From NCBI GenBank assembly GCA_040903745.1, contig JBBDUV010000063.1, positions 42,432-106,431 on the forward strand: 64,000 bases of DNA, in the 5' to 3' direction. Positions within the stretch are counted from its first letter, which is position 1. Every line of letters begins with the position of its first letter. The stretch comes from Bacteroidales bacterium. Its GTDB lineage: Bacteria > Bacteroidota > Bacteroidia > Bacteroidales > GCA-2748055. This document shows positions 37,330 to 63,361 of this stretch, one piece after another. A model generated the notes under the pieces. It made no database searches. It was not told the origin of the DNA and saw nothing but the letters and a program-made list of their open reading frames with translations. Both the position numbers and the translations under genes were made by a program.

Positions 37330-37872
37330 TTATTCCGACAGTTTAGCATCCAGTTTTTCCCTGCAGTGAAGACAGAAATCTCCCTCTTTCTGGTCCAGAT
37401 CTTCTACGTATGTGCTTGAACGCATTACACATACCGGGTTGGTGCAGTGGATCAACCCGAATGTATGTCCAAGCTCATGAACCACCACCTTGGCAAGTCG
37501 TTCAAGCATCAGGTTATGGTCCTCCTTCAGACCGTACAATTCATTTCTCAGCCGGAAAAGCGAGGCGATCCCGCAATTACCATTCAACCGTGCCTGTCCG
37601 TAAATATAAGTAAGAATGGGTATGTAAAGATCGCCCCTGAAAAGGCTCATATACCTGAAGTAACCGGCAGGTGCCCGGGCATATGAAGCTGCCAGGAGTT
37701 CATCGGCATTGTATTGCCTTCGGGCAGGATTATAGAACTCCGACACATCTAAAGTACACTCTTTCAGGTCAACGTCCACATGAAAAACTGAAGCAACCTT
37801 TGTCATAATATGTTTGGTGGTACTTCGCTCGAATTTACCACAAGTAATAATTATGATTCTTTTTTTCTTCAA
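37330..37872 (-). CDS. Archaemetzincin-family (M54) zinc metalloprotease
   Basis: 'HELGHTFGLIHCTNPVCVM-X16-CLHC' matches the archaemetzincin signature HEXXHXXGX3CX4CXM...CXXC almost exactly. Confidence 0.75.
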   Translation of the reverse strand: MKKKRIIIITCGKFERSTTKHIMTKVASVFHVDVDLKECTLDVSEFYNPARRQYNADELLAASYARAPAGYFRYMSLFRGDLYIPILTYIYGQARLNGNCGIASLFRLRNELYGLKEDHNLMLERLAKVVVHELGHTFGLIHCTNPVCVMRSSTYVEDLDQKEGDFCLHCREKLDAKLSE

Positions 37873-37922: not shown

Positions 37923-39260
37923 TTAATGCTTCTTTAGTCCGAATTTTTTAATCTTGTTATACAGCGTTGCCCTGTCAACATTCAGCGCCTTTGCAGTACG
38001 TGAAATGTTCCAGTCATATTTCTTTAGGATCTTCTGAATATGGTTTAACTCCAGCTCATCCAGACTCTCCACCGAACTATTGATCATCTCCTTCCCCATC
38101 GGCAGATCCTTCAGTTTGATCTCTTTCCCGTTCCCTACAACGATGGCACGCTCTATCATGTTCTCCAGTTCTCTGACATTCCCGGGGAAGTCAAAATTCA
38201 TCATATGTTTCATGGCTGCCGGATCGATGGTCAATATATCCCTGCTCATTGATTTACAGTACTTTCCAATAAAATGATTCACCAGCAGGGGAATGTCCTC
38301 CTTGCGCTTGCGCAGTGGTGGGATCTTGATATTCAACACATTTAATCTGTAATACAGGTCTTCCCTGAAGGTGCCATTCTTAACCATCCCTCCCAGATCA
38401 CGGTTGGTCGCGCAGATCGTCCTGAAATCGGAGGAGATCTCCTTATTTCCTCCCACCCGCATAAATGACTTTGTCTCAAGCACACGCAACAATTCAACCT
38501 GCATCTTCGACGAGATCGTGGCGATCTCATCCAGGAAGATCGTTCCCCCGTCTGCCATCTCAAACCTGCCCTTTCTGGTAAAACTTGCGCCGGTAAAGGC
38601 CCCTCTCTCATGACCGAATAGTTCACTTTCTAGCAGACTTTCCGTGAGCGCACCGCAATGTACACTGACCAATGGAAAATACTTACGTGAAGAATTTGAA
38701 TGTATAGCTCTTGCTATCAGTTCTTTACCTGTGCCTGACTCGCCCGTAATGATCACCGAAGAGTTCGATTGTGCAATACTTTCGACATCCTTCAAAACCT
38801 TTTTCAGGGCATCGCTTTCGCCCACGATATCCTCGACATCCACCAGACTGGTAATGCTCTCCTTTAATGTTGTATTTTCAGCCTGGAGAGCTACCTGTTT
38901 CGCTGCATTCCGGATCAGGTGGGACAGATCATCCGGGTCGAATGGCTTGGTCACATAATCGAACGCACCGTTCTTCAGTGCCTGAACTGCAGTGTCCACA
39001 GAAGCGAATGCCGTCATGATAATAAAGATCGGCTCATTTGTAAGCGTCTTAATCCGTTTATGCAACTCCATTCCGTCCATACCGGGCATCTTGATATCGG
39101 CCAGGACAATATCATACTCCTTTTCTTCAAGCATATTGAGTGCCCTTTTTCCATCCTCGGCACAATCGACATCATAACCATCATCAATAAACCAGTTATA
39201 AAGGGAATCCCTTACCGATTCCTCATCATCAACAATTAAAATGGATACCAGTTCTGCCAT
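37923..39260 (-). CDS. Sigma-54-dependent response regulator (REC + AAA+ EBP + Fis-type HTH; NtrC family)
   Basis: Domains seen: REC ('ILIVDDE', 'DIVLADIKMPGMDG'), Walker A 'GESGTGKE', the 'GAFTGA' sigma-54 contact loop, and a C-terminal HTH ('ISRTAKALNVDRATLYNKIKK'). Confidence 0.9.
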   Translation of the reverse strand: MAELVSILIVDDEESVRDSLYNWFIDDGYDVDCAEDGKRALNMLEEKEYDIVLADIKMPGMDGMELHKRIKTLTNEPIFIIMTAFASVDTAVQALKNGAFDYVTKPFDPDDLSHLIRNAAKQVALQAENTTLKESITSLVDVEDIVGESDALKKVLKDVESIAQSNSSVIITGESGTGKELIARAIHSNSSRKYFPLVSVHCGALTESLLESELFGHERGAFTGASFTRKGRFEMADGGTIFLDEIATISSKMQVELLRVLETKSFMRVGGNKEISSDFRTICATNRDLGGMVKNGTFREDLYYRLNVLNIKIPPLRKRKEDIPLLVNHFIGKYCKSMSRDILTIDPAAMKHMMNFDFPGNVRELENMIERAIVVGNGKEIKLKDLPMGKEMINSSVESLDELELNHIQKILKKYDWNISRTAKALNVDRATLYNKIKKFGLKKH

Positions 39261-39265
39261 AATTT

Positions 39266-40942
39266 CTATTTGTTATTTTCTGCCAGAGGTAACACGATCG
39301 AAAAGGTGGTCCCTTTGCCAGGATGAGAATCAACTTTTATTTTTCCCTTGTGGTTTTCAACGATGCCATGTACAATGGCCAGTCCCAGGCCTATACCACT
39401 TGACTCCCTTTTAGTTGAATAGAATGGTTCAAAGATATGCGGTAGTTCCTGTTCCGATATCCCCGTGCCATTATCAATTATATCCAGCTTGAAATGGTTT
39501 TCATCCGGATTGGTGGTTCTGATGATGATCTCACCTTTTTCGCTGACTGCCTCCGAAGAGTTAACCAGCATAGCAACACAGGCTTGTTTTATCTGATTGG
39601 GGCTGCAACCTACCATGTCATTGTTTGCCCTGAAATCCATTTCGAATGCGATGTCGGCCATCTTGATTGTATGCAGCATCAGCCTGTATGTCTCATTTAA
39701 AATCCGGTGCAGGCTTGTAATCTCAAAATCATCCCTGTCTTTTTTTGAGAAATCCAACAACCCCTTCACAATATCGCCGCACCGCTTGGTCTCCGTTTCA
39801 ATAAGCTTCAGGTTTTTTAGGATTGAATCTTTCCTGGCATGGTAAAAATCCGAACTACTCAGCTGCTTGTGCACCAGCTTACAGTAGACGAGAATGCCCG
39901 ACAATGGATTATTAATCTCATGGGCCACCGATGAAGAGAGTTTACCGAGGGAAGCGATTCTCTCTACATGGATCAGTTCATTCTGGGCCTCTGAAAGCGC
40001 CTCTGATTTCTTCTGCACCTTATATTCCAGCTGCTGCGACCAGTTCTGAAGCTCTTCAGTTGCCCTGTCAATATTATCGAGCATATTATTGAATGCCTCG
40101 GAAACCAGCCGCATATCATCCAGAAGATGTGGTTCAAGCTTCAGCCTGATGCTGGTATCTCCACTGGAGACGGCCTCGCTGGCACTGACAATGGAGTTCA
40201 ATGGATCCTTTATCCGCTTGCGGGTGAAAACAACCAGAATACCAACCATGATTCCTGTTATTAAAAGTGCCAGCAGGAGGAAGTCGCGCGATGACCTGTC
40301 AATAAAGCTATCAAGATCACGCAATGGAAGATTGATGATCAGCGATCCCAGCACCTTTTCATCCTCATGGTGGGCATGGCAGGCGGCGGTATAACATGAA
40401 GGTTCATTTAGAATAGGCTTCCTTATTAGCAGGTGTCTTTCGCTGCTGCTTGCCTGGTATAACCCGCAACCAGGATGTTCGTCGAGAATGCGGTACTCCT
40501 TTTCCATGTAGGAGAACATGGAGGAGAGATCGGAGTGACAATCGTTGCAGTTGGGATTTCGCAAGTCGGCATATTCCGCTCCCAGGGAGGTATAGGCCAG
40601 CTGGTCATGCTCATCATACAGGTTTACCTCATTGATGCCCGACATTGTACCGATAATGTCCAGCTCACGCTGGAGCATCGCTTTGTCATTCTCCAGCATG
40701 GAGTAATAGAGTGCTCCCTCTGCAATGGAACTCACCTGGTCGCCGGTCTGACGGATCGTGGTATCAAACAGTTCCAGGTAGATGGTACGAAATACAACAT
40801 TGAAGAGTATAAAAAGAAGAAACAGTGATCCGGCAATGATGAACACCACCCTTCCATAAATCGATGACCTGAAACGGATATAGTTCCTTACCACCTTATT
40901 ATTTGTATTCCTCCTAAAAAATCCGACAAGGGGCCTTGTCAT
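39266..40942 (-). CDS. Sensor histidine kinase with a Cys/His-rich periplasmic domain (CXXCH + CX4CH), HAMP, HisKA and HATPase_c
   Basis: TM1 spans aa 31-52 and TM2 aa 221-240. The periplasmic motifs are 'CNDCH' (nt 40535-40549) and 'CYTAACH' (nt 40376-40396). The H-box is 'SVAHEINNPL', and the G-boxes are 'DNGTGI' and 'GIGLGL'. Confidence 0.85.
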   Translation of the reverse strand: MTRPLVGFFRRNTNNKVVRNYIRFRSSIYGRVVFIIAGSLFLLFILFNVVFRTIYLELFDTTIRQTGDQVSSIAEGALYYSMLENDKAMLQRELDIIGTMSGINEVNLYDEHDQLAYTSLGAEYADLRNPNCNDCHSDLSSMFSYMEKEYRILDEHPGCGLYQASSSERHLLIRKPILNEPSCYTAACHAHHEDEKVLGSLIINLPLRDLDSFIDRSSRDFLLLALLITGIMVGILVVFTRKRIKDPLNSIVSASEAVSSGDTSIRLKLEPHLLDDMRLVSEAFNNMLDNIDRATEELQNWSQQLEYKVQKKSEALSEAQNELIHVERIASLGKLSSSVAHEINNPLSGILVYCKLVHKQLSSSDFYHARKDSILKNLKLIETETKRCGDIVKGLLDFSKKDRDDFEITSLHRILNETYRLMLHTIKMADIAFEMDFRANNDMVGCSPNQIKQACVAMLVNSSEAVSEKGEIIIRTTNPDENHFKLDIIDNGTGISEQELPHIFEPFYSTKRESSGIGLGLAIVHGIVENHKGKIKVDSHPGKGTTFSIVLPLAENNK

Positions 40943-41084
40943 AGTATCTTGGTTTTTAATAAAATATCAATCTGCACATAAACCCGCCGGAATGTAGGCC
41001 AGGGAAACGTGTTGCCACTATTCCCCGGCATAATCAGTTGGACCGGGTGCTCTTTTGAACACCGGTTAAATTACGAAAAAACGG

Positions 41085-41795
41085 TCAATCTAAAAATTCC
41101 TTCTGAAATTTATTCCATACCTCTCCCGGCATCTCAGCCAGAGGGAAATCGGTCAGTTCTCCGCCCTCCTGCAACACAACATGCGATGATCCTTTGTTGA
41201 TTAGTTGCGCAGCTTCGGCCATAAAATCCTTGCAACGCACCAACTCCTCCTGTGACCAGACCACTGCCTCCTCATCCATTTTACAGTCACTGATCTCGGT
41301 TTTCCAGTTTTCCGGCTTCACCTTACAAATCCATCCCTTTCCATAGGGATCGCTGTTGATGAATCCCTCTTTTACCTGTACTTCAGAATTCAGCTTGCGG
41401 ATCTCTCCTGAAATGGGGGAGGCAATTTTTAACTTCCGGTCGCCGCTGGTAACAGTGGCGATGAGATCACCCTTGCTGACCCTTTCGCCTTCAGCCCGTA
41501 AAAAATCTACACTCACACCTCCTGTGATATGCAGCAGCAGGTCGTCCACTCCCACCCTGGCTGCTCCCGATTTCTCCAGGTAGGTCCAGGTATGATTGCG
41601 GTTATAGAACAGTCCTCTCGGAATACTTAAGAGGGCTGCTGAAAGGCCGTTCATCGATCTGACCAACTGTGTTTTTACACTCACCGGTCTGTTCAACAAG
41701 ATCCATGTTGGTATCAGGATCAAAAGAAATGCAATAATCACCAGATATTCAATACCCTTGGTTTCGAAAATATCCGTATACGTAAATGCTTCCAT
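41085..41795 (-). CDS. Membrane-anchored GcvH-like (lipoyl-fold) protein with a conserved C-terminal extension
   Basis: It has an N-terminal TM helix ('IEYLVIIAFLLILIPTWILL'). 'HTWTYLEKSGAARVGVDD...ASPISGEI...INSDPYGKGW' resembles glycine-cleavage H protein. It is a paralog of the C-terminal half of 44032-45759. Confidence 0.6.
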   Translation of the reverse strand: MEAFTYTDIFETKGIEYLVIIAFLLILIPTWILLNRPVSVKTQLVRSMNGLSAALLSIPRGLFYNRNHTWTYLEKSGAARVGVDDLLLHITGGVSVDFLRAEGERVSKGDLIATVTSGDRKLKIASPISGEIRKLNSEVQVKEGFINSDPYGKGWICKVKPENWKTEISDCKMDEEAVVWSQEELVRCKDFMAEAAQLINKGSSHVVLQEGGELTDFPLAEMPGEVWNKFQKEFLD

Positions 41796-41835
41796 AATTG
41801 TCTGTTAAAATTTAATTGTCTGTTAAAAAAATATT

Positions 41836-43065
41836 CTAATGGTCGTCATCCTTTGCCCATTCGGGAGGATCATTGTATACAGGCATGCGGTTCACAATCC
41901 ATCTGAAAACCCAAACCTCTGCAAATACAATGGTGAATGTAACCACTACCTCCATCCATGTTGGATAATAAGGAGTCGCGGAATCCCACCTGTAAGCAAT
42001 AATAGAAACGTTCAGCCGGTTAATCACAATTCCAACCATGGCCACAATAGCGGCCACCCTGGCCAGGGTGATGTTCACCTTCCTGTAGCTGACAAAGAAC
42101 AATACCATCGGGACCAGAACAAAGCCGATCATTTCGACCAGGTACCATAAACCCATGCGTGAATTCAGGTATTCCCAGTTTTTCCCATGTACAAAAACAA
42201 TGATGTGCATGAAGAAATAGACGAACATGGCAAAAGCACATATCTGTGAGAAGCTGTGGACAATCCCATTGTGGGCACGTTTATGTGTATCAGTAATTTT
42301 ATCGGCAAATACCTTTTTGCTGACAGATCCCTCGAAGATGACCATGGAAAGACCGGCAAATACACTGGATACAAGGAACAGAATAGGAATGAATTCATTG
42401 TACCACAGTGGATGAATCTTCTCCCTGGCCATAAGAAACAGGGCACCCAGACCCGACTGATGAAGTGTTGAGAGGGTGATTCCAAAGATCACTGCAGCGA
42501 TGGTCATCCCCGACAAGATCTTCCGTGCCCTTTTCGCCCCGAGCCATTCAGCGATCGCCGGTGAAAACTCGATCAGCTGTGCAACCATGTAAAGCAGGAA
42601 ATGCCAGGCGATCAAAAACAGGACGGAACTCGCTCCAAAACTGTTACCGATAATCGGGTTGATAATGCTTAACGGTCGACCCAGATCAAGCACCAGGGCC
42701 CCCGCATAGAACAGGTAGGCCAGGAAACCGTTAAGCACCGTTACACGAACGATGGATTTATACTTCTTAACGTTCAGTATATAGACGATGAACGTGAGTA
42801 CATAAGCGCCCCCGGCAAATGCGACACCGGTAACAACATTAAATCCTTTCCACAAACCCCAGGGAACCTCCTGGTCAATATTACTGACATACCCGAGTCC
42901 GTGAATAAACCTGAGGATAATGATAACAACGCCTGCCGTCATCACAGGTACGGAGATAATATTGAACCATGTAAAGGCTTTACCTCTGGGCTTTAGTTCG
43001 TCTGCCAGGAATTTCCAGATCGTTCTTCCGTTCCCGGGCTGTTCAATTGCTTCGATATTATTCAT
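41836..43065 (-). CDS. NrfD/HybB/PsrC-family polytopic membrane quinone-interacting subunit
   Basis: About 410 aa with about 10 TM helices ('VPWGLWKGFNVVTGVAFAGGAYVL'). It immediately follows the Tat-FeS subunit. The ATG at 43065 gives an 8-nt overlap with the FeS stop; the track's GTG at 43101 is an alternative. Confidence 0.8.
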   Translation of the reverse strand: MNNIEAIEQPGNGRTIWKFLADELKPRGKAFTWFNIISVPVMTAGVVIIILRFIHGLGYVSNIDQEVPWGLWKGFNVVTGVAFAGGAYVLTFIVYILNVKKYKSIVRVTVLNGFLAYLFYAGALVLDLGRPLSIINPIIGNSFGASSVLFLIAWHFLLYMVAQLIEFSPAIAEWLGAKRARKILSGMTIAAVIFGITLSTLHQSGLGALFLMAREKIHPLWYNEFIPILFLVSSVFAGLSMVIFEGSVSKKVFADKITDTHKRAHNGIVHSFSQICAFAMFVYFFMHIIVFVHGKNWEYLNSRMGLWYLVEMIGFVLVPMVLFFVSYRKVNITLARVAAIVAMVGIVINRLNVSIIAYRWDSATPYYPTWMEVVVTFTIVFAEVWVFRWIVNRMPVYNDPPEWAKDDDH

Positions 43066-43930
43066 TTTCGTTATCTTGTTTTGAATTATGTTTGGTTGCA
43101 CTATGAATTCCCAGGAGCACTGCAGGTGCCAGTACGAAAACAGAAGGCACGCTGTAGAGAAATCCCTTGGTTAATTCAGGATAAGGCTTTTTCTGGATCT
43201 TCGTATTGAATCCAAGCTCTTCAAAAGGCACTGCCGACAGGTAGAGCCAACCGGTTCCCCCTGCTTCATGCTCTCCATAGATCACATCGTGGTACATGCT
43301 GGGATAGTCGTTAATACGCTTACGCGCCTCTGCGATCAACTCACGCCGGTTGCCAAACTTAACAGCTTCTGCCGGACAGTTTTCCACGCAGGCGGGCAGC
43401 AGACCCTCTTTTACCCTGTCGTAGCACATATCACACTTCTGGATTTTCGGATTGGTACTGTGGTACTCAAACTTTGGAGCATCGAACGGACAGGAGATCA
43501 TACAGTACCTGCATCCCATGCTTTTGTCTTCACGCCATATAACTGATCCGTCCTTTTGCTTGTGCATGGCCCTGGTTAGACAAGCCGATACACATGCAGG
43601 TTGTGCGCACTGCATACACTGGGTTTTCACATAAAACTCACCTGCAGAAGTTTCGTATGCATTTACCACAGTACGACGTTTTTCATTCGCCATTCGCTTT
43701 AACCCCACTTCAGGTACATCTTCCAGATCCGGCCCTTCAAACCCATGTGCTTCTGCACATGCAATTTCACACCCCTGGCAACCTGCACACCATGTTGAAT
43801 CGAAAAGGATTCCATGAAACTCATTCTCCTCTTCAATAGGTTCAGCTGTTGCTCCCAGGGGCTTACCTGTTCCGAGTGCAACCCCCGTCAGGCCAAGCGC
43901 CTTTAAAAAATTTCTTCTGTCTACTCCCAT
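43058..43930 (-). CDS. Tat-exported 4x[4Fe-4S] ferredoxin-type subunit (HybA/NrfC/DmsB/PsrB family) with a C-terminal TM anchor
   Basis: The twin-arginine signal is 'VDRRNFLKALG'. Four Cys clusters are present: 'CAGCQGCEIAC', 'CMQCAQPACVSAC', 'CRYCMISCP' and 'CDMCYDRV...ACVENCP'. The hydrophobic tail is 'VPSVFVLAPAVLLGI'. Confidence 0.85.
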   Translation of the reverse strand: MGVDRRNFLKALGLTGVALGTGKPLGATAEPIEEENEFHGILFDSTWCAGCQGCEIACAEAHGFEGPDLEDVPEVGLKRMANEKRRTVVNAYETSAGEFYVKTQCMQCAQPACVSACLTRAMHKQKDGSVIWREDKSMGCRYCMISCPFDAPKFEYHSTNPKIQKCDMCYDRVKEGLLPACVENCPAEAVKFGNRRELIAEARKRINDYPSMYHDVIYGEHEAGGTGWLYLSAVPFEELGFNTKIQKKPYPELTKGFLYSVPSVFVLAPAVLLGIHSATKHNSKQDNENE

Positions 43931-43951
43931 TTTGATTGATTTTATTCTTTA

Positions 43952-44023
43952 GATAATTCACTTGGATAATTCACTTGGATAATTCACTGGATAATTCACT
44001 TGGATAATTCACTTGGATAATTT
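43952..44023. repeat. 13-bp tandem repeat GATAATTCACTTG x5.5, filling the intercistronic gap
   Basis: Copies lie at 43952, 43965, 43978 (12 nt, one T missing), 43990 and 44003, with a partial copy at 44016. The array lies between the stop at 44032 and the start at 43930 of two co-directional minus-strand genes. Confidence 0.9.
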
Positions 44024-44031
44024 ATTTTCGC

Positions 44032-45759
44032 TTAATTTTTGAGGAAACCTGACTGAAAATCTTCCCAGACCTCCGGTCCGAAATTCTTCAGAACCCCTTC
44101 CTGTACTTCACCACCGTCCTGCAGAACTACAGCATGTTCTGATTTAGGTTGTAAAACTTCGGCGAGAAAATCCTTTAGCCTGATAAACTCATACCTGATC
44201 CAATCCCTGTACTTTTGTCCGGTCATATAGGCAGTAAACTCCTCCCTCCAGTTTGTGGGCTCTACCAGATACACCCAACCTTTAGCAAATGGTTCGGTAT
44301 TGATCAGTGATGCGTTTGTCAACAGTTTACCATTTTGCTCCCTGACAATACCGGTAACAGGAGATTTTACCTCGAGTCGTTTCCCGTTTTGTATAATCGC
44401 AAAGACAGTTTCTCCCTTTTTCACCTTTTCTCCCGGACTTTTCATATCCACTTTGGTAATGGCACCTGTTATCTTTTGAAGAAAACAGTCAAGCCCGACC
44501 CTGATCCTGCCATCCTTCTCCATAAAGGTCCAGGTATGTGAACGGTCGAAGAAATATCCCCCGGGAACCTCTGAGGATTCGGCAACAAACGTTGTAGATT
44601 TCACCATGCTTCCCTGCTCTGGTAAAGGCTCCCTGCTGTTAAAAACACGTAGAACAAGGTATACAATGATTGCTCCTGCAAGAAGAGCCAGTATGACAAG
44701 CAGTAGCGGTGAGGCTAAATTCGGAGCAATATCAGGCTCACTGGCAGTAACCGGCGCAGCATCCAGGTTAGCAAGGATCACATCTCTTTCGCGCTCCATC
44801 AGTGGCGCATAACCATTGGCAGCAATCAGCTCCTGTCCCCTGCCCAACATCCAGCTAACCAGTTCCATTCCGGTTGCGGTTCCAGTTCCGGTTGCGGTTC
44901 CGGTTCCGGTTGCGGTTGCGGTTCCAGTTCCGGTTGCGGCTGATGCTTCAAGAGAGGTAACCGCAAAGATTCTGCTATAAAGTGTACCCGAATATTTACC
45001 GATCCAGACACCCCTGGCAAGTTCATCTACGCTTCCATAGATCTCTTCAAAGTGGTCCACCTTCCCGTTGTTATTCAAATCGACCGGAATCATAAGCACA
45101 CCGGGGGAAGATTTGGTGCGCTCCATCTCCAACAACTGGGTAAGCGTACAGAATCCAACCGCATTCAATTCACTTTTTACCTTGTCAACAACATCTTCAC
45201 AACTGCCCAGTATGGTACCTTGGATGGATGCTTCACCGGAATTTGTAAAATCTGACAGATAAGAATTAAAGGATGGGTCAGAAATCCGGTAAGCTGTTAC
45301 CGGTACATTACTGTTGTTGTGCAATACAGATCCCCATGTTGTAGATTCTCCAGGTGCATAAAGCGATGCAAACTCAACAGGAGAAATTCCCTGTTTCATG
45401 ATCTCATCCCGGTACCTGTTTCCGGGATTCATCACCGGAACATACACCTCTCTGCCAATCACACTGACCTTTGTTGTCCGCGGATCAACACCTTTCATGT
45501 AACTTTTGGTAAGAAATGCAATATGACCCGGCTTTCCGATCCATTCTCCCAGTTCAGCCTCATAAGCCTCAACCGATACGATCATGCCTTCGTTCTCCAA
45601 CATAAAGGCATCAGCACACTCTTTTACAACAGGGAAAAGATCAGGACTGCACCTGACCTGTATAGCCTCCGAAGAAGACCCCTCCGGTAACATGGCCCCA
45701 GCAAAAGCTTCTCCTGCAAACAGAGCCAATGAACAAATAAGAACTGCTAAATTTTTCAT
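44032..45759 (-). CDS. Signal peptide + periplasmic PBP-like (PstS-type) domain + TM helix + cytoplasmic GcvH-like domain fusion protein
   Basis: The start is taken at 'MKNLAVLICSLALFAGEAFA'. The periplasmic part resembles phosphate-binding-protein-like folds ('IAFLTKSY','VGFCTL','GYAPL'). A Thr-Gly/Thr-Ala low-complexity insert follows, then the TM helix 'LLLVILALLAGAIIVYLVL'. The C-terminal part is 'HTWTFMEKDGRIRVGLD...KSPVTGIV...INTEPFAKGW'. Confidence 0.6.
   Translation of the reverse strand: MKNLAVLICSLALFAGEAFAGAMLPEGSSSEAIQVRCSPDLFPVVKECADAFMLENEGMIVSVEAYEAELGEWIGKPGHIAFLTKSYMKGVDPRTTKVSVIGREVYVPVMNPGNRYRDEIMKQGISPVEFASLYAPGESTTWGSVLHNNSNVPVTAYRISDPSFNSYLSDFTNSGEASIQGTILGSCEDVVDKVKSELNAVGFCTLTQLLEMERTKSSPGVLMIPVDLNNNGKVDHFEEIYGSVDELARGVWIGKYSGTLYSRIFAVTSLEASAATGTGTATATGTGTATGTGTATGMELVSWMLGRGQELIAANGYAPLMERERDVILANLDAAPVTASEPDIAPNLASPLLLVILALLAGAIIVYLVLRVFNSREPLPEQGSMVKSTTFVAESSEVPGGYFFDRSHTWTFMEKDGRIRVGLDCFLQKITGAITKVDMKSPGEKVKKGETVFAIIQNGKRLEVKSPVTGIVREQNGKLLTNASLINTEPFAKGWVYLVEPTNWREEFTAYMTGQKYRDWIRYEFIRLKDFLAEVLQPKSEHAVVLQDGGEVQEGVLKNFGPEVWEDFQSGFLKN
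44869..44940. repeat. In-frame GGTTCC/GGTTGC microsatellite encoding a (T-G/T-A)n linker
   Basis: The plus strand reads CCGGTTGCGGTTCCAGTT-like 18-nt units, about 4 copies. They translate on the minus strand to 'ATGTGTATATGTGTATGTGTATG'. Confidence 0.8.
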
Positions 45760-45809
45760 ATTCCAGATTTTTAAAATCGTTCCGTAATTCATCATGACCT
45801 CAATATTTG

Positions 45810-45825
45810 CAATGCCAATTACAAA
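45810..45825 (-). promoter_or_regulatory. Weak candidate sigma-54 promoter (TGGCAT-N5-TTGTA)
   Basis: The minus strand reads TGGCATcatgtTTGTA, 51 nt upstream of the ATG at 45759. The spacing is correct and the -24 GG is present, but the -12 element is GT rather than the consensus GC. Confidence 0.25.
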
Positions 45826-45902
45826 CATGATGCCAGATGATATTAAAGTTCTGATTTACTGGTTTTTACGCTATAACGCAATGTCTATCAACAGGAGGGC
45901 AA

Positions 45903-45921
45903 GTGTTGTATTTTTCAACAC
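45903..45921. promoter_or_regulatory. Palindrome GTGTTG-N7-CAACAC (candidate enhancer/UAS)
   Basis: It lies about 95 nt upstream of the candidate sigma-54 promoter. Its half-sites recur at 45973-45983 and 46001-46009, separated by a 17-nt insert. Confidence 0.3.
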
Positions 45922-46102
45922 TCGAAAAATATATTTGTTGTTATTATCTGTTTTTCAATATGTTATATTGCATGTTGTATTTTACTACAGGTGATGTATA
46001 TTTCAACACCCAGCATTGTATAATATTGATTAGATGATATTTGTATGTTTATAATTTATATATATTGTCGAAAATAGCTTTCGAGTTGAGCTATTGTAAT
46101 CT

Positions 46103-46747
46103 TTAATCTCCCCCATATCCGAGGTCATAGATCTCACGAATCTCCTTTAATTTCTCTTCAAAATCAATTTTCAGGTCGACCAGTTCCCCGGAGTTCAGAT
46201 CGAAAACCCAGCCATGAACCACCGGATAACCATGCCCAAGGAAAGTCCTCTGGACAACGGCTGTTTTGATAATATTGATGCATTGCTCCTCGACGTTTAA
46301 CTCCACGAGACGGTCATATTTTCGTTGCTCATCGGTAATGGAGTTTAATTCCTTTCTGTGCAGGCGATACACATCCCTGATACTTCGCAGCCAGGGGTTG
46401 AGGATTCCCTGGTCCTGCGGTTCCATAGCTGCTTTCACACCACCACAACGGTAATGGCCACAAACCACAATATGTTTTACCTTCAACTGTTTTACAGCAT
46501 AGTTAATCACCGACATCACATTTAAGTCTGTATTTTGCACCATGTTGGCAATATTGCGGTGGACAAACACATCGCCCGGCTCGGCACCCATCATCTCCTC
46601 AGCGGAGACCCGGCTATCACTGCAGCCGATATACAAGAAATCCGGATTCTGATCCTTCGCCAGTTTCTCAAAAAAATGGTTGTCAGCAGCCTTTTTTTCT
46701 GCCACCCACCTTTTGTTGTTCTCAAATATCTTTTCGTATTCGGTCAT
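46103..46747 (-). CDS. can: Beta-class carbonic anhydrase
   Basis: 214 aa with 'CSDSRV' and 'HYRCGG' zinc-ligand motifs. Confidence 0.85.
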   Translation of the reverse strand: MTEYEKIFENNKRWVAEKKAADNHFFEKLAKDQNPDFLYIGCSDSRVSAEEMMGAEPGDVFVHRNIANMVQNTDLNVMSVINYAVKQLKVKHIVVCGHYRCGGVKAAMEPQDQGILNPWLRSIRDVYRLHRKELNSITDEQRKYDRLVELNVEEQCINIIKTAVVQRTFLGHGYPVVHGWVFDLNSGELVDLKIDFEEKLKEIREIYDLGYGGD

Positions 46748-47237: not shown

Positions 47238-50200
47238 ATGAAAAAGGTCATCCACATCCTCACCATCACCCTCGCCCTGCTCCTGATCCTGCTTATCACC
47301 CTCCCCTTCCTTTTCAAATCGAAAATCGAGGGTCTCGTGAAACAGGAGATCAACAAACAGGTCGAAGCCACAGTCAACTGGTCGAAATTCAGCCTCACCT
47401 TCTTCCGCGGCTTCCCCGACCTCAGCGTGAACCTGCACGAACTATCTGTTGTTGGAAAAGAGACCTTCGAAGGCGACACCCTCCTCTCCCTCAACCGGTT
47501 CGAGCTCAGGGTGAGCCCCTTCACCGCCCTCAAAAAGAAGATCATCGTAAAATCGATCCTCCTCAACCAACCGCTGATCAACGCCATCGTTCTGGCCGAC
47601 GGATCGGCCAATTACGATATCGTGCCTCCGGCGGAGGAAGAAGATGTTTTAGCTGAACGCCCGGTGGCGCAGCAGTCGCCCGAAAGCCAGGCAGCAGCGG
47701 CGGCTGACAAGGCAGCGAAAAAGGCTGATGAGGCGTCAGATCAAGCTGATGAGGCAGCAGGTCAGGCTGGTGCCACAGCCGGTAGTTCCATGGGCATCTC
47801 CCTGAAGTTGTTTGCCATAAAAAATGGCAAAATACTTTACGACGACCACTCATCCAACATCGCAGCCTCCGTTGGTAACTTCAACCTGGAGGTGCGGGGC
47901 GATTTATCCATGGAGCAGACCGACATCGACCTTGAGATGGCGGTGCACGATATAACCGCCTACTCTGATGGTATACGGTACATGAGAAACGGAAAACTCG
48001 GGATGGAGATGACCGCTGCAGCGGATATGGTCAACAGCATCTACACCCTGAAAAAGAATGAGATCAGGATCAACGGACTGGTTCTTGGCGCTGAAGGGAC
48101 AGTGGCCATGCCGGCCGACGGATCGATCCTGCCCGATATCAGGTTCTTCACCCGGGAGACCTCCTTCCGGACGCTGCTATCTATGGTACCGGCCATCTAC
48201 CTGTCAGATTTCGAAAGCCTGGAAACCTCCGGCTCCCTCGCCCTTGAAGGGACTGTCAAAGGTATGATGAAGGACTCCATCCTGCCCGATGTAACACTGA
48301 ACCTGTCGGTAAAAGACGGCTTCTTCTCCTATCCCGACCTGCCGAAGGATGTATCGGATGTGCAGATCGCCCTGCAGGTGAACTACTTCGGCTCAGATAT
48401 GGACGCCACTACCGTTAGCCTCGACCGGTTCCACCTTCTCCTGGGAGGCAACCCGTTTAACATCGACATGCAGGTTGCCACCCCCTTCAGCGATATGCAT
48501 GTGGCGGGGATGGTGAAAGGGATGATCGATTTTGCCACCCTGAAGGATGTCGTACCCATGAAAGATCTCAACCTGTCGGGCCGGCTCAATGCTGACCTGC
48601 AATGGGATACGCGGATGTCGTACATCGAGAAGGAGCAGTATGAGCAGGTGGATCTCGACGGACGGCTAACGATCGAAGAAGTGATGGTCGAGGCGCCCGA
48701 ACTCCCTGTCCCGGTGCAGTTGAAGAAGATGTCGATGATCTTCACCCCCCGGTTTGTGAACCTGGAGACGATCGATCTGCTGCTGGGGGCGTCCGACCTG
48801 CATATGGACGGACGGTTAACCAACTTTGTACCCTATGTGTTTGAGGGGAAAACAGTGGCAGGAACATTGAATGTGTCTTCAAGTATGCTGGATGCCAATG
48901 AATTTCTGGAAGAGGAAGCCGCAAATAATGGAACGGATCAACCTGACGGTGCCCTGACTGATCCGGGGACCGGTGCCGGTGAACCACCCTCTGAAGAGCG
49001 TTCCCCCGGTACAGAAATGGCTTCAGCAGAAAGTGGGAACGGTGGGGCTGCAGAAGATGAAGAATTATTGGTACCAGCCGACTCCCTCGCGGTGCCACCG
49101 GCGATGAAAATACCGGAAAACATCAATTTTGATATGACCCTCAACCTGAAGAAATTGTTGTACGATAACATCGTGGTGGAGAATATGTCAGGAAAGGTGG
49201 CGGTGAAGGATGGGGTTGCCCACCTGGCTGGACTCGAAATGAATGTGCTGAAGGGGAAGGTGTCGGTTGATGGTGAAGTAGACACCCGGGAGGAATTTAC
49301 CCGGGCCGATGTGAAGATGAACCTGACCGGCATCGATATTCCCACTTCGTATGAGACATTCATGACCATCAAAACGCTCGCACCTGTAGCGCAATACTGC
49401 CAGGGGACCGCCAATGTGGTGATGGACCTCACAACACTCCTGGATGCATCGATGAACCCGCTGTATGAGTCGATCGATGCCAATGGTCACCTCTATACCC
49501 GCAACCTGAAGGTGGAGCAGCCGGCATCGCTCGAAAAACTCAGTAGCATGCTGAAAAATGAGAAGCTGAAAAACCTGGAGCTCGACAGGGCCGATATCAG
49601 ATTTGCCATCCGCGACGGTCGGGTGATCGTGGAGCCGTTCGACATGAACTTCGAGAATTCGAAGATCGTTGCATCCGGATCGCATGGGATCGACCAGACG
49701 ATGGACTACCTGCTGGATATGAATATCGCTAAAAGTGATATGGGCGGTGCCGCCAATGAGATGATGAACAGTGTGACCGCCCTGGCAGCCGGGGCAGGAT
49801 TTTCCGTACCACAGTCTGACTATATCAAGGTGAGGGCCAATATCACCGGTACCTTTAAGGATCCCCGGGTAAGCACCGATTTGAGGGGGAACCTGACCGG
49901 CGGAGAGGGAACAGTGAGGGAGGTTGTGAAGGAGGCTGTGAAGGAGAAGGTTACCCAAGAGGTCGAGCGGGTGAAGGATGAAGTGAAACAGGAGGTGCAG
50001 GAGGAGGCGACCGCAAGGGCTGCTGAGTTGATCGAAAATGCAGAGGCTGAGAAGGCCCGGCTGGCGGGGGAGGCCCGGCAGGCGGGCGACAAGCTGGTGG
50101 CAGAAGCCGAAAAGAAGGGTGAACAGCTGATCAGGGAGGCCGGAAACAACCCGCTCAAACAGATCGCGGCGAAGAAGGCGGCCGAAGAGCTGGTGAAGCA

Positions 50201-50294
50201 GGCAGAGAGGCAGTCGGCCAGGCTCATCAAAGAGGCTGAAACCAAAGGCGATGCAATCGTTGAGAGGGCCAGGGAGGAGGCAGCAAGACTTTGA
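47238..50294 (+). CDS. AsmA-family outer-membrane biogenesis / lipid-transport-like protein
   Basis: 1018 aa with an N-terminal TM anchor and an AsmA-like N-terminus ('VNWSKFSLTFFRGFPDLSV...LNQPLINAIVLADGSANYDIV'). The middle is a long beta-rich body. The tail is a coiled-coil with repeated 'EAExKG' segments. Confidence 0.8.
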   Translation: MKKVIHILTITLALLLILLITLPFLFKSKIEGLVKQEINKQVEATVNWSKFSLTFFRGFPDLSVNLHELSVVGKETFEGDTLLSLNRFELRVSPFTALKKKIIVKSILLNQPLINAIVLADGSANYDIVPPAEEEDVLAERPVAQQSPESQAAAAADKAAKKADEASDQADEAAGQAGATAGSSMGISLKLFAIKNGKILYDDHSSNIAASVGNFNLEVRGDLSMEQTDIDLEMAVHDITAYSDGIRYMRNGKLGMEMTAAADMVNSIYTLKKNEIRINGLVLGAEGTVAMPADGSILPDIRFFTRETSFRTLLSMVPAIYLSDFESLETSGSLALEGTVKGMMKDSILPDVTLNLSVKDGFFSYPDLPKDVSDVQIALQVNYFGSDMDATTVSLDRFHLLLGGNPFNIDMQVATPFSDMHVAGMVKGMIDFATLKDVVPMKDLNLSGRLNADLQWDTRMSYIEKEQYEQVDLDGRLTIEEVMVEAPELPVPVQLKKMSMIFTPRFVNLETIDLLLGASDLHMDGRLTNFVPYVFEGKTVAGTLNVSSSMLDANEFLEEEAANNGTDQPDGALTDPGTGAGEPPSEERSPGTEMASAESGNGGAAEDEELLVPADSLAVPPAMKIPENINFDMTLNLKKLLYDNIVVENMSGKVAVKDGVAHLAGLEMNVLKGKVSVDGEVDTREEFTRADVKMNLTGIDIPTSYETFMTIKTLAPVAQYCQGTANVVMDLTTLLDASMNPLYESIDANGHLYTRNLKVEQPASLEKLSSMLKNEKLKNLELDRADIRFAIRDGRVIVEPFDMNFENSKIVASGSHGIDQTMDYLLDMNIAKSDMGGAANEMMNSVTALAAGAGFSVPQSDYIKVRANITGTFKDPRVSTDLRGNLTGGEGTVREVVKEAVKEKVTQEVERVKDEVKQEVQEEATARAAELIENAEAEKARLAGEARQAGDKLVAEAEKKGEQLIREAGNNPLKQIAAKKAAEELVKQAERQSARLIKEAETKGDAIVERAREEAARL

Positions 50295-59827: not shown

Positions 59828-60440
59828 ATTTAATTGGATTTTGGCGAAGTATTTTTCCAGGATTACCAACTACTACATCATAATCTTTAACATCTCTAAG
59901 AATAACCGAACCAGCACCAATGATAGCCCATTTTCCAATTTTAACTCCAGGCAATATCGTAGCTCCTGTGCCTACATGAGTACCCTCACCGATATGAACA
60001 CCTCCTGTTATTGATGCATTTGGTGAAACATGAACAAAATCAAATATTTTACTATCGTGATCGATTACACATGCAGTATTAATAATACAATGACGACCTA
60101 TCTCAACATCGACATTAATTGTAACATTTGCCATAACTACAGTTCCTTCAAGCAATTCTGAATGGGGAGTTATAACTGCTGTTGGATGTATCAATGCTTC
60201 ATGATAATTTAGCATTTTTTTTTCATAAACCTTTTTCCTTGTGTAATTATCACCTATTGAAATAATCCACTTATCATCAGCTAATTCTGAAGGAATATAC
60301 TTTGATGGCAAATACACTGGATAACCTGATAATTCATTAATCTCACCATTATCATCAATAATACCTTCTATTTCAATACTAAGTTGAGATGCAATATCAA
60401 TGATAACTTTTGCATGACCACTTGCTCCATATAAATTCAT
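59820..60440 (-). CDS. NeuD/PglD-family sugar N-acetyltransferase (hexapeptide)
   Basis: 206 aa with a 'GASGHAKVI' Rossmann-like N-terminus and a left-handed beta-helix C-terminus. Confidence 0.8.
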   Translation of the reverse strand: MNLYGASGHAKVIIDIASQLSIEIEGIIDDNGEINELSGYPVYLPSKYIPSELADDKWIISIGDNYTRKKVYEKKMLNYHEALIHPTAVITPHSELLEGTVVMANVTINVDVEIGRHCIINTACVIDHDSKIFDFVHVSPNASITGGVHIGEGTHVGTGATILPGVKIGKWAIIGAGSVILRDVKDYDVVVGNPGKILRQNPIKYD

Positions 60441-60442
60441 TC

Positions 60443-61048
60443 CTAATTATTTCCTTTAAAGCGTTCCATTGTTGAATAACCTTTCTGATTTATGCCTTCT
60501 CGTTTAAAAACATGTAATATTGTCAATATAAATATTTTAAAATCCAGAGCAAAACTTACATTGTCAATATACCAAACATCGAGTGAAAACCTCTTTTTCC
60601 AATTTAATTCATTTCTTCCATTCACCTGTGCCCATCCAGTTATTCCTGGACGTAAGAGCAACCTTCTTTTTTGAAATTCATTATATAGAGAAAGATATTC
60701 CGGAAGTAAAGGTCTAGGGCCAATCATTGACATATCTCCTTTTAAGACATTAAATAACTGGGGCAACTCGTCCAATGAATTCTTTCTTAATATACCTCCC
60801 AATATGGTCATTCTTTTATCATCGGGCAACAAATTACCATTCTCATCAGTAAGGTCAGCCATAGTTTTAAACTTTAGTAATTCAAAGATCAATCCGTCTC
60901 TCCCGGTTCTTTGCTGAACGAAAAACACAACCCCATTATTAAAAAAAAGCTGAGCTATTATAATAAACAGAAAAACCGGAATAAATAATACGATCAGAAA
61001 AAAGGCCGAAAAAATATCAATTACTCTTTTTATTATTAACTTGTACAC
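60443..61048 (-). CDS. Small phosphoglycosyl (sugar-1-phosphate) transferase, PglC/WbaP C-terminal type
   Basis: 201 aa with 'KRVIDIFSAF', 'DELPQLFNVLKGDMSMIGPRP' and 'PGITGWAQV'. Confidence 0.85.
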   Translation of the reverse strand: MYKLIIKRVIDIFSAFFLIVLFIPVFLFIIIAQLFFNNGVVFFVQQRTGRDGLIFELLKFKTMADLTDENGNLLPDDKRMTILGGILRKNSLDELPQLFNVLKGDMSMIGPRPLLPEYLSLYNEFQKRRLLLRPGITGWAQVNGRNELNWKKRFSLDVWYIDNVSFALDFKIFILTILHVFKREGINQKGYSTMERFKGNN

Positions 61049-62225
61049 GCTCTACAATTTTTGCAACTTCTATTGTGAGATGAGATTTATCAAAACTATT
61101 TATAGCCACTTGACGTGCTTTCTGATTGCTTTTTAAATCATTCAAATAGTTCTTAACCGAATCATCCGAAAATATATTTTTAACTTGTTCAATGTTATCC
61201 TGATTAATATAAAAACCCAATTTTTCCTTCTCAATAATGTCATATTTCCATCCTTTATAATTCATAATTACAGGTTTATTTCCAACTGAAAGATAATCAA
61301 AAAACTTGTTTGCTGAATTCGTTTCAAATAATTTGTAATCGGGATCAACTAACATTAAAAAAACATCTGCGTCATTTAAAAATTGATTTAAATCTGTTTT
61401 GGGTACACCATCATGAACTCTAATATTTCTATGTTGCAAGCTCAATTGAATTAATTCTTCTTTCTCCTTTCCTTCTCCAATAAAAACAAAAAATATTTCA
61501 GGCAATTCTAATGCAACTTTACGGGTAAACTTCAGCAAACCATTGACCATCCCCATAGCTCCTGTATGGATAGCAACTAAACTATTTTTGGGAATATTCA
61601 GTTTCCGATGTAGAATATACTTTTTATCGGTTGGAAAAAATGTCTCTAAATCGCACATATTTGGTATCACAGATAACTTTTTTGAATCAATCCCTTTACT
61701 AATTATTGAATTCTTCATCCCGGGCGATAAAGCAATAATATGATATGATTTTCGATAGATACTTTTTTCAAAAGAATATAGTAATTTTACGAATAATGGA
61801 TTTTTAATGATCCCAATGGTAACAGGGATATCAGGCCACAAATCCCTCACTTCAAAAATATAGGGTGTCTTTTTTAATATTTTAAGAAAAATAGCAGGTA
61901 TACCAACTGTTAGCGGAGTTGAAGTAGCATAAACTACATTAATATTTTTTATCCTTAATGCATAGCGAATAGTTTTTAAAACAAAACTTATAAATGAAAT
62001 AATGCGATAAAAGTTAGAAAGTGTATTATCATAAAAATTTCGGATGTAAACAACCTTGATACCATTAATAATTTCCGTCTCCACTGATGATTCCTGATAA
62101 TTTCTACTTGTTAAAACAATCACTTCATGATTTCTATTCGCAAGCTGTTGAGAAATCCAATAAGATCTGGTTCCACCTCCCTCTGCAGGAGTTTTAAAAT
62201 ACTGATGTATATATAAAATTTTCAA
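61017..62225 (-). CDS. Glycosyltransferase family 4
   Basis: 402 aa with an 'MKILYIHQYF..GGGTR' N-terminus (WbuB-like) and GT-B architecture. Confidence 0.75.
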   Translation of the reverse strand: MKILYIHQYFKTPAEGGGTRSYWISQQLANRNHEVIVLTSRNYQESSVETEIINGIKVVYIRNFYDNTLSNFYRIISFISFVLKTIRYALRIKNINVVYATSTPLTVGIPAIFLKILKKTPYIFEVRDLWPDIPVTIGIIKNPLFVKLLYSFEKSIYRKSYHIIALSPGMKNSIISKGIDSKKLSVIPNMCDLETFFPTDKKYILHRKLNIPKNSLVAIHTGAMGMVNGLLKFTRKVALELPEIFFVFIGEGKEKEELIQLSLQHRNIRVHDGVPKTDLNQFLNDADVFLMLVDPDYKLFETNSANKFFDYLSVGNKPVIMNYKGWKYDIIEKEKLGFYINQDNIEQVKNIFSDDSVKNYLNDLKSNQKARQVAINSFDKSHLTIEVAKIVERVQVNNKKSN

Positions 62226-62233
62226 TGTCGTTT

Positions 62234-63361
62234 CTATTCCAAATAAATAGCCAGATATTGATTGGCAATATCATTCCAGTTAAAATCATTTGCAGCCTTT
62301 TTACATCTATCTGATATCATTTCATAATTGATGTTAATCTCTCTAATTTTTGCTATTATTTCTTCCTTATCTTTAGGATTTACAGCAAATCCAACGTAAC
62401 CATCTTTAAAAAATCCATCTATACCCTGCCCTTTTGTATAAATAACGGGAAGTCCCTGAGACATAGCCTCTATATAGGTCAACCCAAATGTTTCCTTTAA
62501 AGAAATCATTATATATATGTCAGAAATTTGATAAAATCTCCTCAACTCTTCTTTATTACTAAGCCTGCATTGGATTTTCACCTTATTAGAAGTACTTGCT
62601 AATCGTTCTACCCGACCACTATATCTATCATTACGATCTTTTCCAATCAAGGTTAAATAGGTAGGTTCCATCAGTTTTTTATTTGCTTCTGTTACCGTAT
62701 TTATCAACCCTATAATGTTCTTATTTCTAGTAAATTGTCCAACAAACAACAATTTATTTATCTCAAAATCATTCCTGTCTTTTATACCAGAATTTTTAAA
62801 CCAAAAGTCACTGATACCGTTTGGAATAACTTCTGACTTTTCCTCAACTATATTTCGATATTTCTTAGGTAGAATGTTGTTTATTAGTTCATCTTTATAG
62901 CTTGGATTAATAAAAATTATTTTTTTTGCATTTTTCAAAATTTGAAATGAAAATTCTCTTAAATGAACCATATATCTGTAAAAAATATTTATATCTGTAT
63001 TCCTTACTGAGATAATATATGGAATAGAAAATCGTTTAAACAGGTTATAAGCTACTCCACCATCGCTAAATAAAGTATGGGCGTGTATAACATTGAATTT
63101 TTGTAAATCATGATGAGTATGAATTAAATGCTTTGTAGTTTTCGCAATTTTAAGTTTATAAAGTATACGATGATATGGTCGTAAGATATTTAAAAAATTG
63201 AAATCAAGGTTATCGCAATTTATCAGATTTTTATTTATCAATGAACTGTCTCTTAAGGGGACATACACATATTGATAGTTACCTTTTTCCCATAATTTAG
63301 TTATTACATTTTTATATAACTCAGTTGTTGAGTAATTACAACAGATATGTAATATATTCAT
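62234..63361 (-). CDS. Glycosyltransferase family 4/1
   Basis: 375 aa with the 'ETFGLTYIEAMSQGLPVI' EX7E motif. Confidence 0.7.
   Translation of the reverse strand: MNILHICCNYSTTELYKNVITKLWEKGNYQYVYVPLRDSSLINKNLINCDNLDFNFLNILRPYHRILYKLKIAKTTKHLIHTHHDLQKFNVIHAHTLFSDGGVAYNLFKRFSIPYIISVRNTDINIFYRYMVHLREFSFQILKNAKKIIFINPSYKDELINNILPKKYRNIVEEKSEVIPNGISDFWFKNSGIKDRNDFEINKLLFVGQFTRNKNIIGLINTVTEANKKLMEPTYLTLIGKDRNDRYSGRVERLASTSNKVKIQCRLSNKEELRRFYQISDIYIMISLKETFGLTYIEAMSQGLPVIYTKGQGIDGFFKDGYVGFAVNPKDKEEIIAKIREININYEMISDRCKKAANDFNWNDIANQYLAIYLE

Follow-up and report, generated by a model that had tools for sequence, protein, structure and literature searches.

Two membrane-tethered GcvH-like modules in a conserved Hmc-like gene cluster of Bacteroidia

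Two proteins of a Bacteroidales bacterium, here called A and D, carry membrane-tethered modules which are true ancient paralogues with a real GcvH fold, and which are encoded at the two ends of a four-gene cluster (A-B-C-D) whose inner genes resemble those of the Hmc complex of Desulfovibrio. The cluster lies in a stretch of 64,000 nucleotides (NCBI GenBank assembly GCA_040903745.1, contig JBBDUV010000063.1, positions 42,432 to 106,431 of the forward strand), referred to below as the window, with position 1 as its first letter. Six consecutive open reading frames on the minus strand, spanning 37923-45828, encode A, B, C, D, a sensor histidine kinase and an NtrC-type sigma54-dependent response regulator, and the gene of an M54 zinc peptidase comes next. 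The modules of A and D are interpreted here as a non-catalytic accessory pair in a sigma54-controlled, Hmc-like quinone complex, an interpretation which stands about an even chance of being correct. At least 541 relatives were returned when 185,579 species genomes were scanned with a pattern, and the comparison of gene order builds on the best 80 of these.

Fold and paralogy of the two modules

An initial annotation, made from the letters of the sequence, had proposed that two proteins of the window share a GcvH-like module. Both open reading frames are present on the minus strand, which carries all features described here unless stated otherwise, with gene A at 44032..45828 (598 residues as an open reading frame) and gene D at 41085..41795 (236 residues), and all motif strings quoted for them were found. 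The paralogy is borne out by BLASTP, which aligns residues 37-235 of D with residues 401-596 of A at 70 identities in 199 positions (35%), with three gaps and an E-value of 2e-43. The GcvH fold is recognised at the profile level: Pfam GCV_H scores 75.0 bits for D (residues 57-184, 41244..41627) and 74.4 bits for A (residues ~420-546, 44191..44571) against a gathering score of 22.2, and phmmer against the PDB gives E-values of 2.3e-14 for D and 3.6e-12 for A.

Structure prediction agrees with this assignment. AlphaFold2 (AF2) models of both proteins match solved H-proteins with Foldseek TMt values of 0.87-0.95 and a root-mean-square deviation (rmsd) of 1.1-2.2. The model of D, built from 68 sequences with a mean predicted local distance difference test score (pLDDT) of 81, consists of a transmembrane helix (residues 14-35), a disordered linker and a GcvH core from residue 57 to ~185, followed by a tail. 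This core superimposes on the lipoylated E. coli H-protein with a TMt of 0.89 and an rmsd of 1.9 Å, within a range of 0.87-0.90 for D across the solved H-proteins. The full-length model of A has a pLDDT of 87, and its GcvH core reaches TMt values of 0.92-0.95. With the E. coli H-protein as reference, the TM values of the two models span 0.89-0.95.

Among homologues, the median module identity is 54% between A modules and 52% between D modules, as opposed to 38% between A and D, which implies that the duplication is older than the radiation and that both copies have been kept. The same residue is conserved in the A and D modules at 42 positions. Neither module has a conserved cysteine among the homologues, and the tail that follows them also lacks a conserved histidine.

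The modules share with canonical GcvH (PF01597; for example 3AB9 of E. coli and 1ONL of T. thermophilus) the fold, the motifs H-x-W, P-[VI]-S-G and N-x-[DE]-P-Y-x-x-G-W, and the C-terminal helix. They differ in several respects: GcvH is a soluble protein of ~130 residues, whereas the modules have an N-terminal membrane anchor and an additional C-terminal sub-domain of ~52 residues, and the E-S-V-K-A hairpin of GcvH has been replaced by x-[DN]-G-[KR]. GcvH moreover acts together with GcvT, GcvP and Lpd, whereas the genes of A and D are unlinked to gcvT or gcvP, both of which are absent from the cluster, from the related loci and from the recurrent neighbours. The curated NCBIfam models for GcvH are not satisfied either, with 59.2 and 57.9 bits for the two modules against a cut-off of 115.85 for TIGR00527 and 72.7 and 71.8 bits against a cut-off of 117 for NF002270. 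By the Pfam criterion A and D are thus members of the GcvH fold family, but they fail the curated GcvH thresholds as well as the genomic context of GcvH, and D in addition has no lysine at the canonical position.

The lipoylation position

The canonical lipoyl-lysine position is occupied by aspartate in D and by glycine in A, as the initial annotation had aligned them. For D, HMMER was used to align the module with solved H-proteins, and in three alignments, all free of gaps, the lipoyl-lysine faces D119, which is followed by R120 (41436..41441). The canonical column of 120 D-type homologues holds glycine (74%) or aspartate (24%), and the next column holds lysine (74%) or arginine (23%), the latter being the residue of the window copy. 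As the D-type lysine interchanges with arginine, it is not an obligatory acylation site, and D is predicted not to be a lipoyl carrier.

The situation in A is less clear-cut. In the ungapped alignment G482 occupies the canonical column and K483 follows directly (44380..44385). The two residues are nearly frozen: among representatives clustered at 50% identity the glycine is found in 81 of 81 and the lysine in 80 of 81, while the locus-derived sequences have each of them in 69 of 70. HMMER aligns A without gaps to 2ka7, the GcvH of T. maritima, with G482 opposite the lipoyl-lysine; with 1onl, the GcvH of T. thermophilus, a compensating pair of gaps sets K483 opposite the lipoyl-lysine instead. 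A conserved lysine at the site is therefore found in this one HMMER alignment and not in the others. In the AF2 model a strand is followed by a turn at N481-G482 and by a second strand beginning at K483, so that the lysine comes after the turn and not at its tip. The surrounding sequence reads Q-x-G-K-Q, without the acidic and small residues of E-S-V-K-A.

According to the lipoyl-domain literature, shifting the target lysine by one residue abolishes lipoylation, and A is probably not lipoylated either. The near-invariance of K483 and the one gapped HMMER alignment nevertheless leave this unproven. The proposal that both modules lack the lipoyl-lysine thus stands for D, with D119 and R120 at the relevant positions, and has to be qualified for A, where a near-invariant lysine is kept one residue downstream. 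Genes for lipoate ligase, lipoyl synthase or hdr-like proteins were found neither around four related loci, whose neighbourhoods were annotated with Pfam, nor in the scanned cluster and flanking genes of the window. The frozen state of K483 keeps the hypothesis of a modification alive.

A C-terminal extension found in A and D

The shared tail that the initial annotation had regarded as novel is a real extension of ~52 residues in both proteins, but it is shorter than first proposed. The sequence of E. coli GcvH aligns through E184 of D, in agreement with the ~129 columns aligned by Foldseek. The true extension therefore comprises residues 185-236 of D (41088..41243) and 547-598 of A (44035..44190) and not everything from W164 onwards, while the part containing W(K/R)xE (~20 residues) is the ordinary C-terminal helix of GcvH. 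It is built from a prolongation of the GcvH helix, a short hairpin with an invariant L-Q-x-G-G-E motif (LQDGGE in A) and a terminal helix with the pattern W..FQ..FL. In the AF2 model the extension of A has pLDDT values of 90-96 outside its loop, which suggests that it forms an integral sub-domain and is not a flexible appendage.

The tail has no match in Pfam, NCBIfam or the PDB, consistent with the claim that it is not a known domain. A profile of the tail on its own was searched against 1.84 billion representatives and gave 579 matches at E <= 1e-3, the best 150 of which were inspected. All of these are A-type proteins (~530-594 residues), D-type proteins (229-256 residues) or fragments, and every match lies at the very end of the C-terminus. 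As the tail is confined to A- and D-type proteins among these best 150 of the 579 matches, the extension is specific to this family. A stand-alone occurrence of the tail was also considered and rejected: a word-indexed profile search produced only proteins of 61-133 residues, and the two of these short proteins which lie on long contigs are pieces of a frameshifted gene A.

Membrane anchors and the periplasmic domain of A

Both modules are tethered to the membrane and face the cytoplasm, as had been proposed, by direct reading of their sequences. A is composed of a signal peptide, a PstS-like periplasmic domain, a single transmembrane helix, the GcvH-like module and the tail; the signal peptide, a domain from a periplasmic family, the transmembrane helix (44650..44715; helix 349-372 in the numbering of the model) and the basic stretch after it together place the module of A in the cytoplasm. 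In D, the same orientation follows from an acidic N-terminus, the transmembrane helix and a basic stretch.

The first 35 residues of D (41691..41795) are the best-conserved part of the protein. They contain the near-invariant motif F10-x-T-K-G-x-E-Y17 and a conserved transmembrane helix marked by F23, P29 and W31; positions F10, T12, K13, G14, E16, Y17, F23, P29 and W31 vary little or not at all. The NCBIfam model of HmcD (NF045712, 38 positions) matches 21 of 34 D-type N-termini, with a best E-value of 2.6e-5 and all matches below its 34-bit cut-off, and does not match the window copy. Together with the gene order B-C-D, which is that of hmcB-C-D, these matches favour a view of D as the fusion of an HmcD-like helix with a GcvH-like domain. 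By contrast, A has a transmembrane helix of low sequence conservation.

The periplasmic domain of A (44779..45681) was assigned by Foldseek, with 4jwo as a match (E 3e-17, TMt 0.68), and by profile search, in which hmmsearch found PstS in the PDB with an E-value of 5.5e-7. Pfam PBP_like_2 reaches up to 34.7 bits, above its gathering score, in some homologues of A and has no match to the window copy. The domain thus resembles PstS in fold and at the profile level, but differs from it in important ways. The phosphate-binding loops GS[TS] and SGT are not kept, as seen by eye in HMMER alignments in which 'GST' and 'SSGS' of PstS stand against 'cSPd' and 'des.v' of A. An EF-hand-like Ca2+ loop, DLNNNGKVDHFE, is inserted at residues ~250-261 (about 45100-45140 of the window); its consensus is D-x-N-x-N-G-x-V-D-x-x-E or, more generally, D-x-N-x-N-G-x-x-D-x-x-E, and its D/N/E positions are invariant across the A family. 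Finally, the domain is anchored by a C-terminal transmembrane helix and fused to a cytoplasmic domain, and no pstCAB genes accompany it. The window copy also has a hexanucleotide tandem repeat of 12 copies (44859-44939) encoding a (Thr-Gly/Ala)n insert in the periplasmic domain, which is missing in homologues and predicted to be disordered.

The Hmc-like core and related complexes

B (43058..43930, 290 residues) is a ferredoxin of four [4Fe-4S] clusters that is exported by the Tat pathway and tail-anchored (Pfam Fer4_11 and TAT_signal), and C (41836..43101, 421 residues) is an integral membrane subunit of the NrfD family (Pfam NrfD). The best NCBIfam model for B is HmcB with 306 bits, followed by HybA with 225 bits, while C is best matched by HmcC with 388 bits, followed by HybB with 228 bits. 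B and C are therefore nearest to HmcB and HmcC of the Hmc and Nhc complexes of Desulfovibrio (HmcABCDEF, NhcABCD), the D N-terminus appears nearest to HmcD, and the three genes have the same order. Downstream of the cluster are regulator genes, an arrangement also known from hmc with rrf1 and rrf2.

The differences from Hmc and Nhc are nevertheless considerable. The A-B-C-D cluster has neither the multihaem cytochrome HmcA/NhcA nor HmcE and HmcF; its first gene encodes a PstS-like/GcvH-like fusion, its HmcD-like helix is joined to a GcvH-like module, and it occurs in Bacteroidia, whereas Hmc and Nhc belong to Desulfobacterota. No open reading frame in the 64-kb window has two or more CxxCH motifs, and no cytochrome recurs among the neighbours of related loci. 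The cytoplasm-facing module of HmcE and HmcF (haem b and HdrD-like) is absent from the window cluster and from all loci examined. Without a cytochrome and without an HmcE/F module, the operon does not encode an Hmc complex. A review of the NrfD family records NhcC in only two Bacteroidetes and does not list a GcvH-like subunit.

A second comparison is offered by HybA and HybB of E. coli hydrogenase 2, which likewise combine a tail-anchored, Tat-exported four-cluster ferredoxin with a cofactor-less NrfD-type quinone subunit. Here, the difference is that hydrogenase genes are absent from the window cluster and the related loci, and that A and D are additional. For the modules themselves, the nearest precedents are GcvH-like proteins recruited outside glycine cleavage, namely LbpA of the sHdr system and GcvH-L of Streptococcus and Staphylococcus (5A35, a structural match to the D module in Foldseek at E 3e-5). 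LbpA proteins act in a respiratory sulfur pathway, sHdr sulfur oxidation (PMC6067878). In contrast to A and D, however, LbpA and GcvH-L are soluble, keep the lipoyl-lysine and have dedicated ligases or modifying enzymes, none of which were seen for A or D. An analogy can also be drawn to the N-terminal barrel-sandwich-hybrid domain of RnfC and NqrA, in which a lipoyl-type fold without lipoylation has a structural task on the cytoplasmic side of a membrane redox complex. There is no significant sequence relationship, the Pfam RnfC_N match is weak (E 0.0098, below threshold), and RnfC and NqrA have a different subunit context and lack the GcvH-specific helices.

Distribution and synteny

The best 80 of the at least 541 relatives are all labelled Bacteroidia or Bacteroidota, a 'Chitinophaga' metagenome-assembled genome (MAG) being among them. 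According to tblastn, the order A-B-C-D-kinase-regulator-M54 is preserved on one strand in every one of these loci as far as the contig reaches. No other flanking gene recurs, with any one neighbour common to at most 7 of ~76 loci. Carriers come from sediments, lakes and digesters. A cluster look-up for a cultured host returned MAG or metagenome records only, and the sequencing runs in which the region was found are DNA runs of sediment metagenomes, with no RNA runs among them. No curated family among those searched covers the A-B-C-D unit, and the literature searched has nothing on GcvH together with NrfD or on the A-B-C-D cluster.

Two loci of a divergent sub-group encode a short A of ~225 residues which consists of the transmembrane helix, the module and the tail (L028:5092-5788 and L068:3546-4233). 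It is thus the module that A cannot do without. One close relative shares its flanks with the window (L086:4583-6600); there, B, C and most of D have been lost and A is frameshifted, with kinase, regulator and M54 peptidase kept; this locus appears to be decaying, or to be an assembly artefact. The M54 peptidase follows the regulator in every covered locus.

Promoter and regulatory genes

A sigma54-type -24/-12 promoter, TGGCATCATGTTTGT, lies upstream of gene A at 45821..45835. Among 64 distinct loci, 62 have the pattern TGGCAY-N5-TTG in the 200 nt before gene A, as against 6 of 9220 control windows (0.07%), and it is found in none of 79 regions upstream of the kinase genes. The -12 element ends in TTG(A/G/T) and not in TTGC, a feature which emerged from the comparison of loci and which may be the Bacteroidia form of this element; the canonical TGGCAC-N5-TTGC is not enriched in the window. 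The ATG at 45828, with which the long open reading frame begins, was rejected as the start of A, given that the promoter lies downstream of it. As the promoter falls inside the long frame, A probably starts 23 codons further downstream at the ATG at 45759, which would give a protein of 575 residues beginning with MKNLAVL and a signal peptide.

Palindromes of the form TGTTG-N7-CAACA, one to three per locus, were found in 62 of 63 loci compared with 49 of 2224 control windows (2.2%). The window has two of the form TGTTG-N7-CA(A/T)CA at 45992-46008 and 45904-45920, ~88 nt apart and upstream of the promoter. These are probably enhancer sites for an NtrC-type regulator, and it is most probably the co-encoded one (37923..39260; Pfam Response_reg, Sigma54_activat and HTH_8) that acts at the A promoter. 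Its likely partner is the sensor histidine kinase (39266..40942; Pfam HAMP, HisKA and HATPase_c), the periplasmic domain of which has the elements C132xxCH, C183x4CH, C159 and H191 conserved in 73 homologues. The conserved CxxCH and Cx4CH motifs suggest that this domain is likely to be a c-type haem redox sensor. The zinc peptidase (37330..37872, 180 residues; Pfam Peptidase_M54 81 bits) is archaemetzincin-like, has the motif HELGHxxGxxH and, without a signal peptide, is cytoplasmic.

A model of the complex and its alternatives

In the model that we favour, A and D would be accessory subunits with a single membrane pass, and their modules the cytoplasmic domains, in a membrane complex specific to Bacteroidia. 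Its core would be homologous to the HmcB-HmcC-HmcD part of Hmc and Nhc, with B as the periplasmic iron-sulfur protein, C as the quinone-interacting NrfD-type subunit and the N-terminus of D as the HmcD-like helix. One GcvH-type domain would have been duplicated anciently, gained the C-terminal sub-domain and lost the E-S-V-K hairpin. D would be fixed in the complex through its conserved helix. Since the transmembrane helix of A is variable and A sometimes consists of little more than this helix and the module, A would most simply be recruited by pairing with the module of D, which would tether the PstS-like domain beside the iron-sulfur subunit. The two modules may pair underneath C, where they would form a non-redox cap with a structural or regulatory role, in other words a scaffold or a gate on its cytoplasmic side. 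They are taken as non-catalytic because they have no conserved cysteine, no tail histidine and no encoded partner redox enzyme. The B-C module has no cofactor that would carry electrons through the membrane, so that electrons presumably pass between menaquinone and a periplasmic partner whose gene lies elsewhere. The operon would be switched on from its sigma54 promoter by a regulator that receives its signal from the kinase with the haem-c-type sensor.

Several observations weigh against this model. The equivalog cut-offs for the core subunits are missed (306 against 420 bits for HmcB and 388 against 550 bits for HmcC), the N-terminus of the window copy of D has no match to NF045712, and the search for recurrent neighbours found no periplasmic redox partner. 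The contact between A and D, as well as their contact with C, is something that we infer. A purely structural role would also leave the 42 frozen positions unexplained, many of which are charged or aromatic residues of surface type, and the near-invariance of K483 (80 of 81) next to an arginine-tolerant D would be better explained by a lysine-specific role such as covalent modification.

This last point leads to a different explanation, in which A is a carrier modified at K483 with a lipoyl, octanoyl or other acyl group, and acts as a membrane-anchored swinging arm between the Hmc-like module and a cytoplasmic reaction, with D as a degenerate partner. The contrast between the frozen lysine of A and the column of D that drifts to arginine, the HMMER alignment with the T. 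thermophilus H-protein, the very well preserved GcvH core of A with its TMt of up to 0.95 and the precedent of LbpA in a respiratory sulfur pathway (PMC6067878) all argue for such a carrier. However, the ungapped alignments and the AF2 model put K483 after the N-G turn, one position from the canonical site, a shift which according to the lipoyl-domain literature abolishes lipoylation, and the context has changed from E-S-V-K-A to Q-x-G-K-Q. In addition, neither a ligase nor a lipoyl synthase nor a cytoplasmic redox enzyme is encoded in the operon or recurrently nearby, and the B-C module has no cofactor with which to move electrons across the membrane. We consider a modified carrier unlikely. 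A role in signalling is improbable to the same degree: here, the PstS-like domain would sense a periplasmic ligand, and the modules would relay the ligand or the state of B-C, for instance through the regulated release of a module, to the kinase and regulator or to the M54 peptidase. This would account for the invariable linkage of the cluster to a haem-type kinase, a sigma54 regulator and a cytoplasmic M54 peptidase, for the receptor-like binding-protein fold of A without a phosphate site, and for the lack of an encoded catalytic periplasmic subunit. On the other hand, A and D, together with the intervening B and C, are located behind the sigma54 promoter and are targets of the regulation, some lineages have no periplasmic domain in A at all, and the kinase has a periplasmic sensor of its own and no obvious cytoplasmic docking domain.

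In the most far-reaching reading, K483 would be modified by a lipoyl or other acyl group, and the Hmc-like quinone unit would reach the cytoplasm via a membrane-anchored GcvH-type arm, as a new type of respiratory module; or else A-B-C-D would be a sensor of the quinone pool or of periplasmic redox state which feeds the haem kinase. This reading is distinctly unlikely. Finally, A and D can hardly be the ordinary glycine cleavage system H proteins that most database records make of them (D-type homologues are named 'glycine cleavage system H protein' or hypothetical). This name is in keeping with Pfam GCV_H scores above the gathering score, but not with scores of about half the NCBIfam cut-offs for GcvH, the membrane anchor, the extra tail and the missing lysine at the canonical site. 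Nor does it agree with the loci examined, in which the genes are never beside gcvT or gcvP and always inside an Hmc-like operon. The non-catalytic accessory pair in an Hmc-like quinone complex remains the explanation that we prefer.

Surroundings of the cluster

In the window, the cluster is flanked by genes for a beta-class carbonic anhydrase (46103-46747, minus strand) and an AsmA-family protein (47238-50294, plus strand). The same flank is found in L086 and in one further locus (L002), and is absent from most loci. At the end of the window (60001-64000) the GC content falls to ~0.30 from 0.45-0.50 in the rest; this segment, in or beside a region for polysaccharide synthesis, may have been acquired horizontally.

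Implications

At least 541 species genomes, almost all of them labelled Bacteroidia or Bacteroidota, carry the seven-gene unit, which is undescribed in the literature searched. Its architecture is surprising and widespread, while new chemistry is not indicated by these data. A practical consequence concerns genome annotation, as the misnaming of two of its proteins as 'glycine cleavage system H protein' inflates the calls of glycine cleavage in reconstructions from MAGs. For the biology of lipoyl domains, the two modules are a natural paired experiment, with a frozen lysine shifted by one residue in A and an arginine-tolerant position in D. The sharply defined sigma54 promoter with its probable palindromic enhancer amounts to a ready reporter for the inducing signal. 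For bioenergetics, the cluster would extend the Hmc/Nhc-type NrfD module beyond the sulfate reducers, in a cytochrome-free form with two cytoplasmic lipoyl-fold domains.

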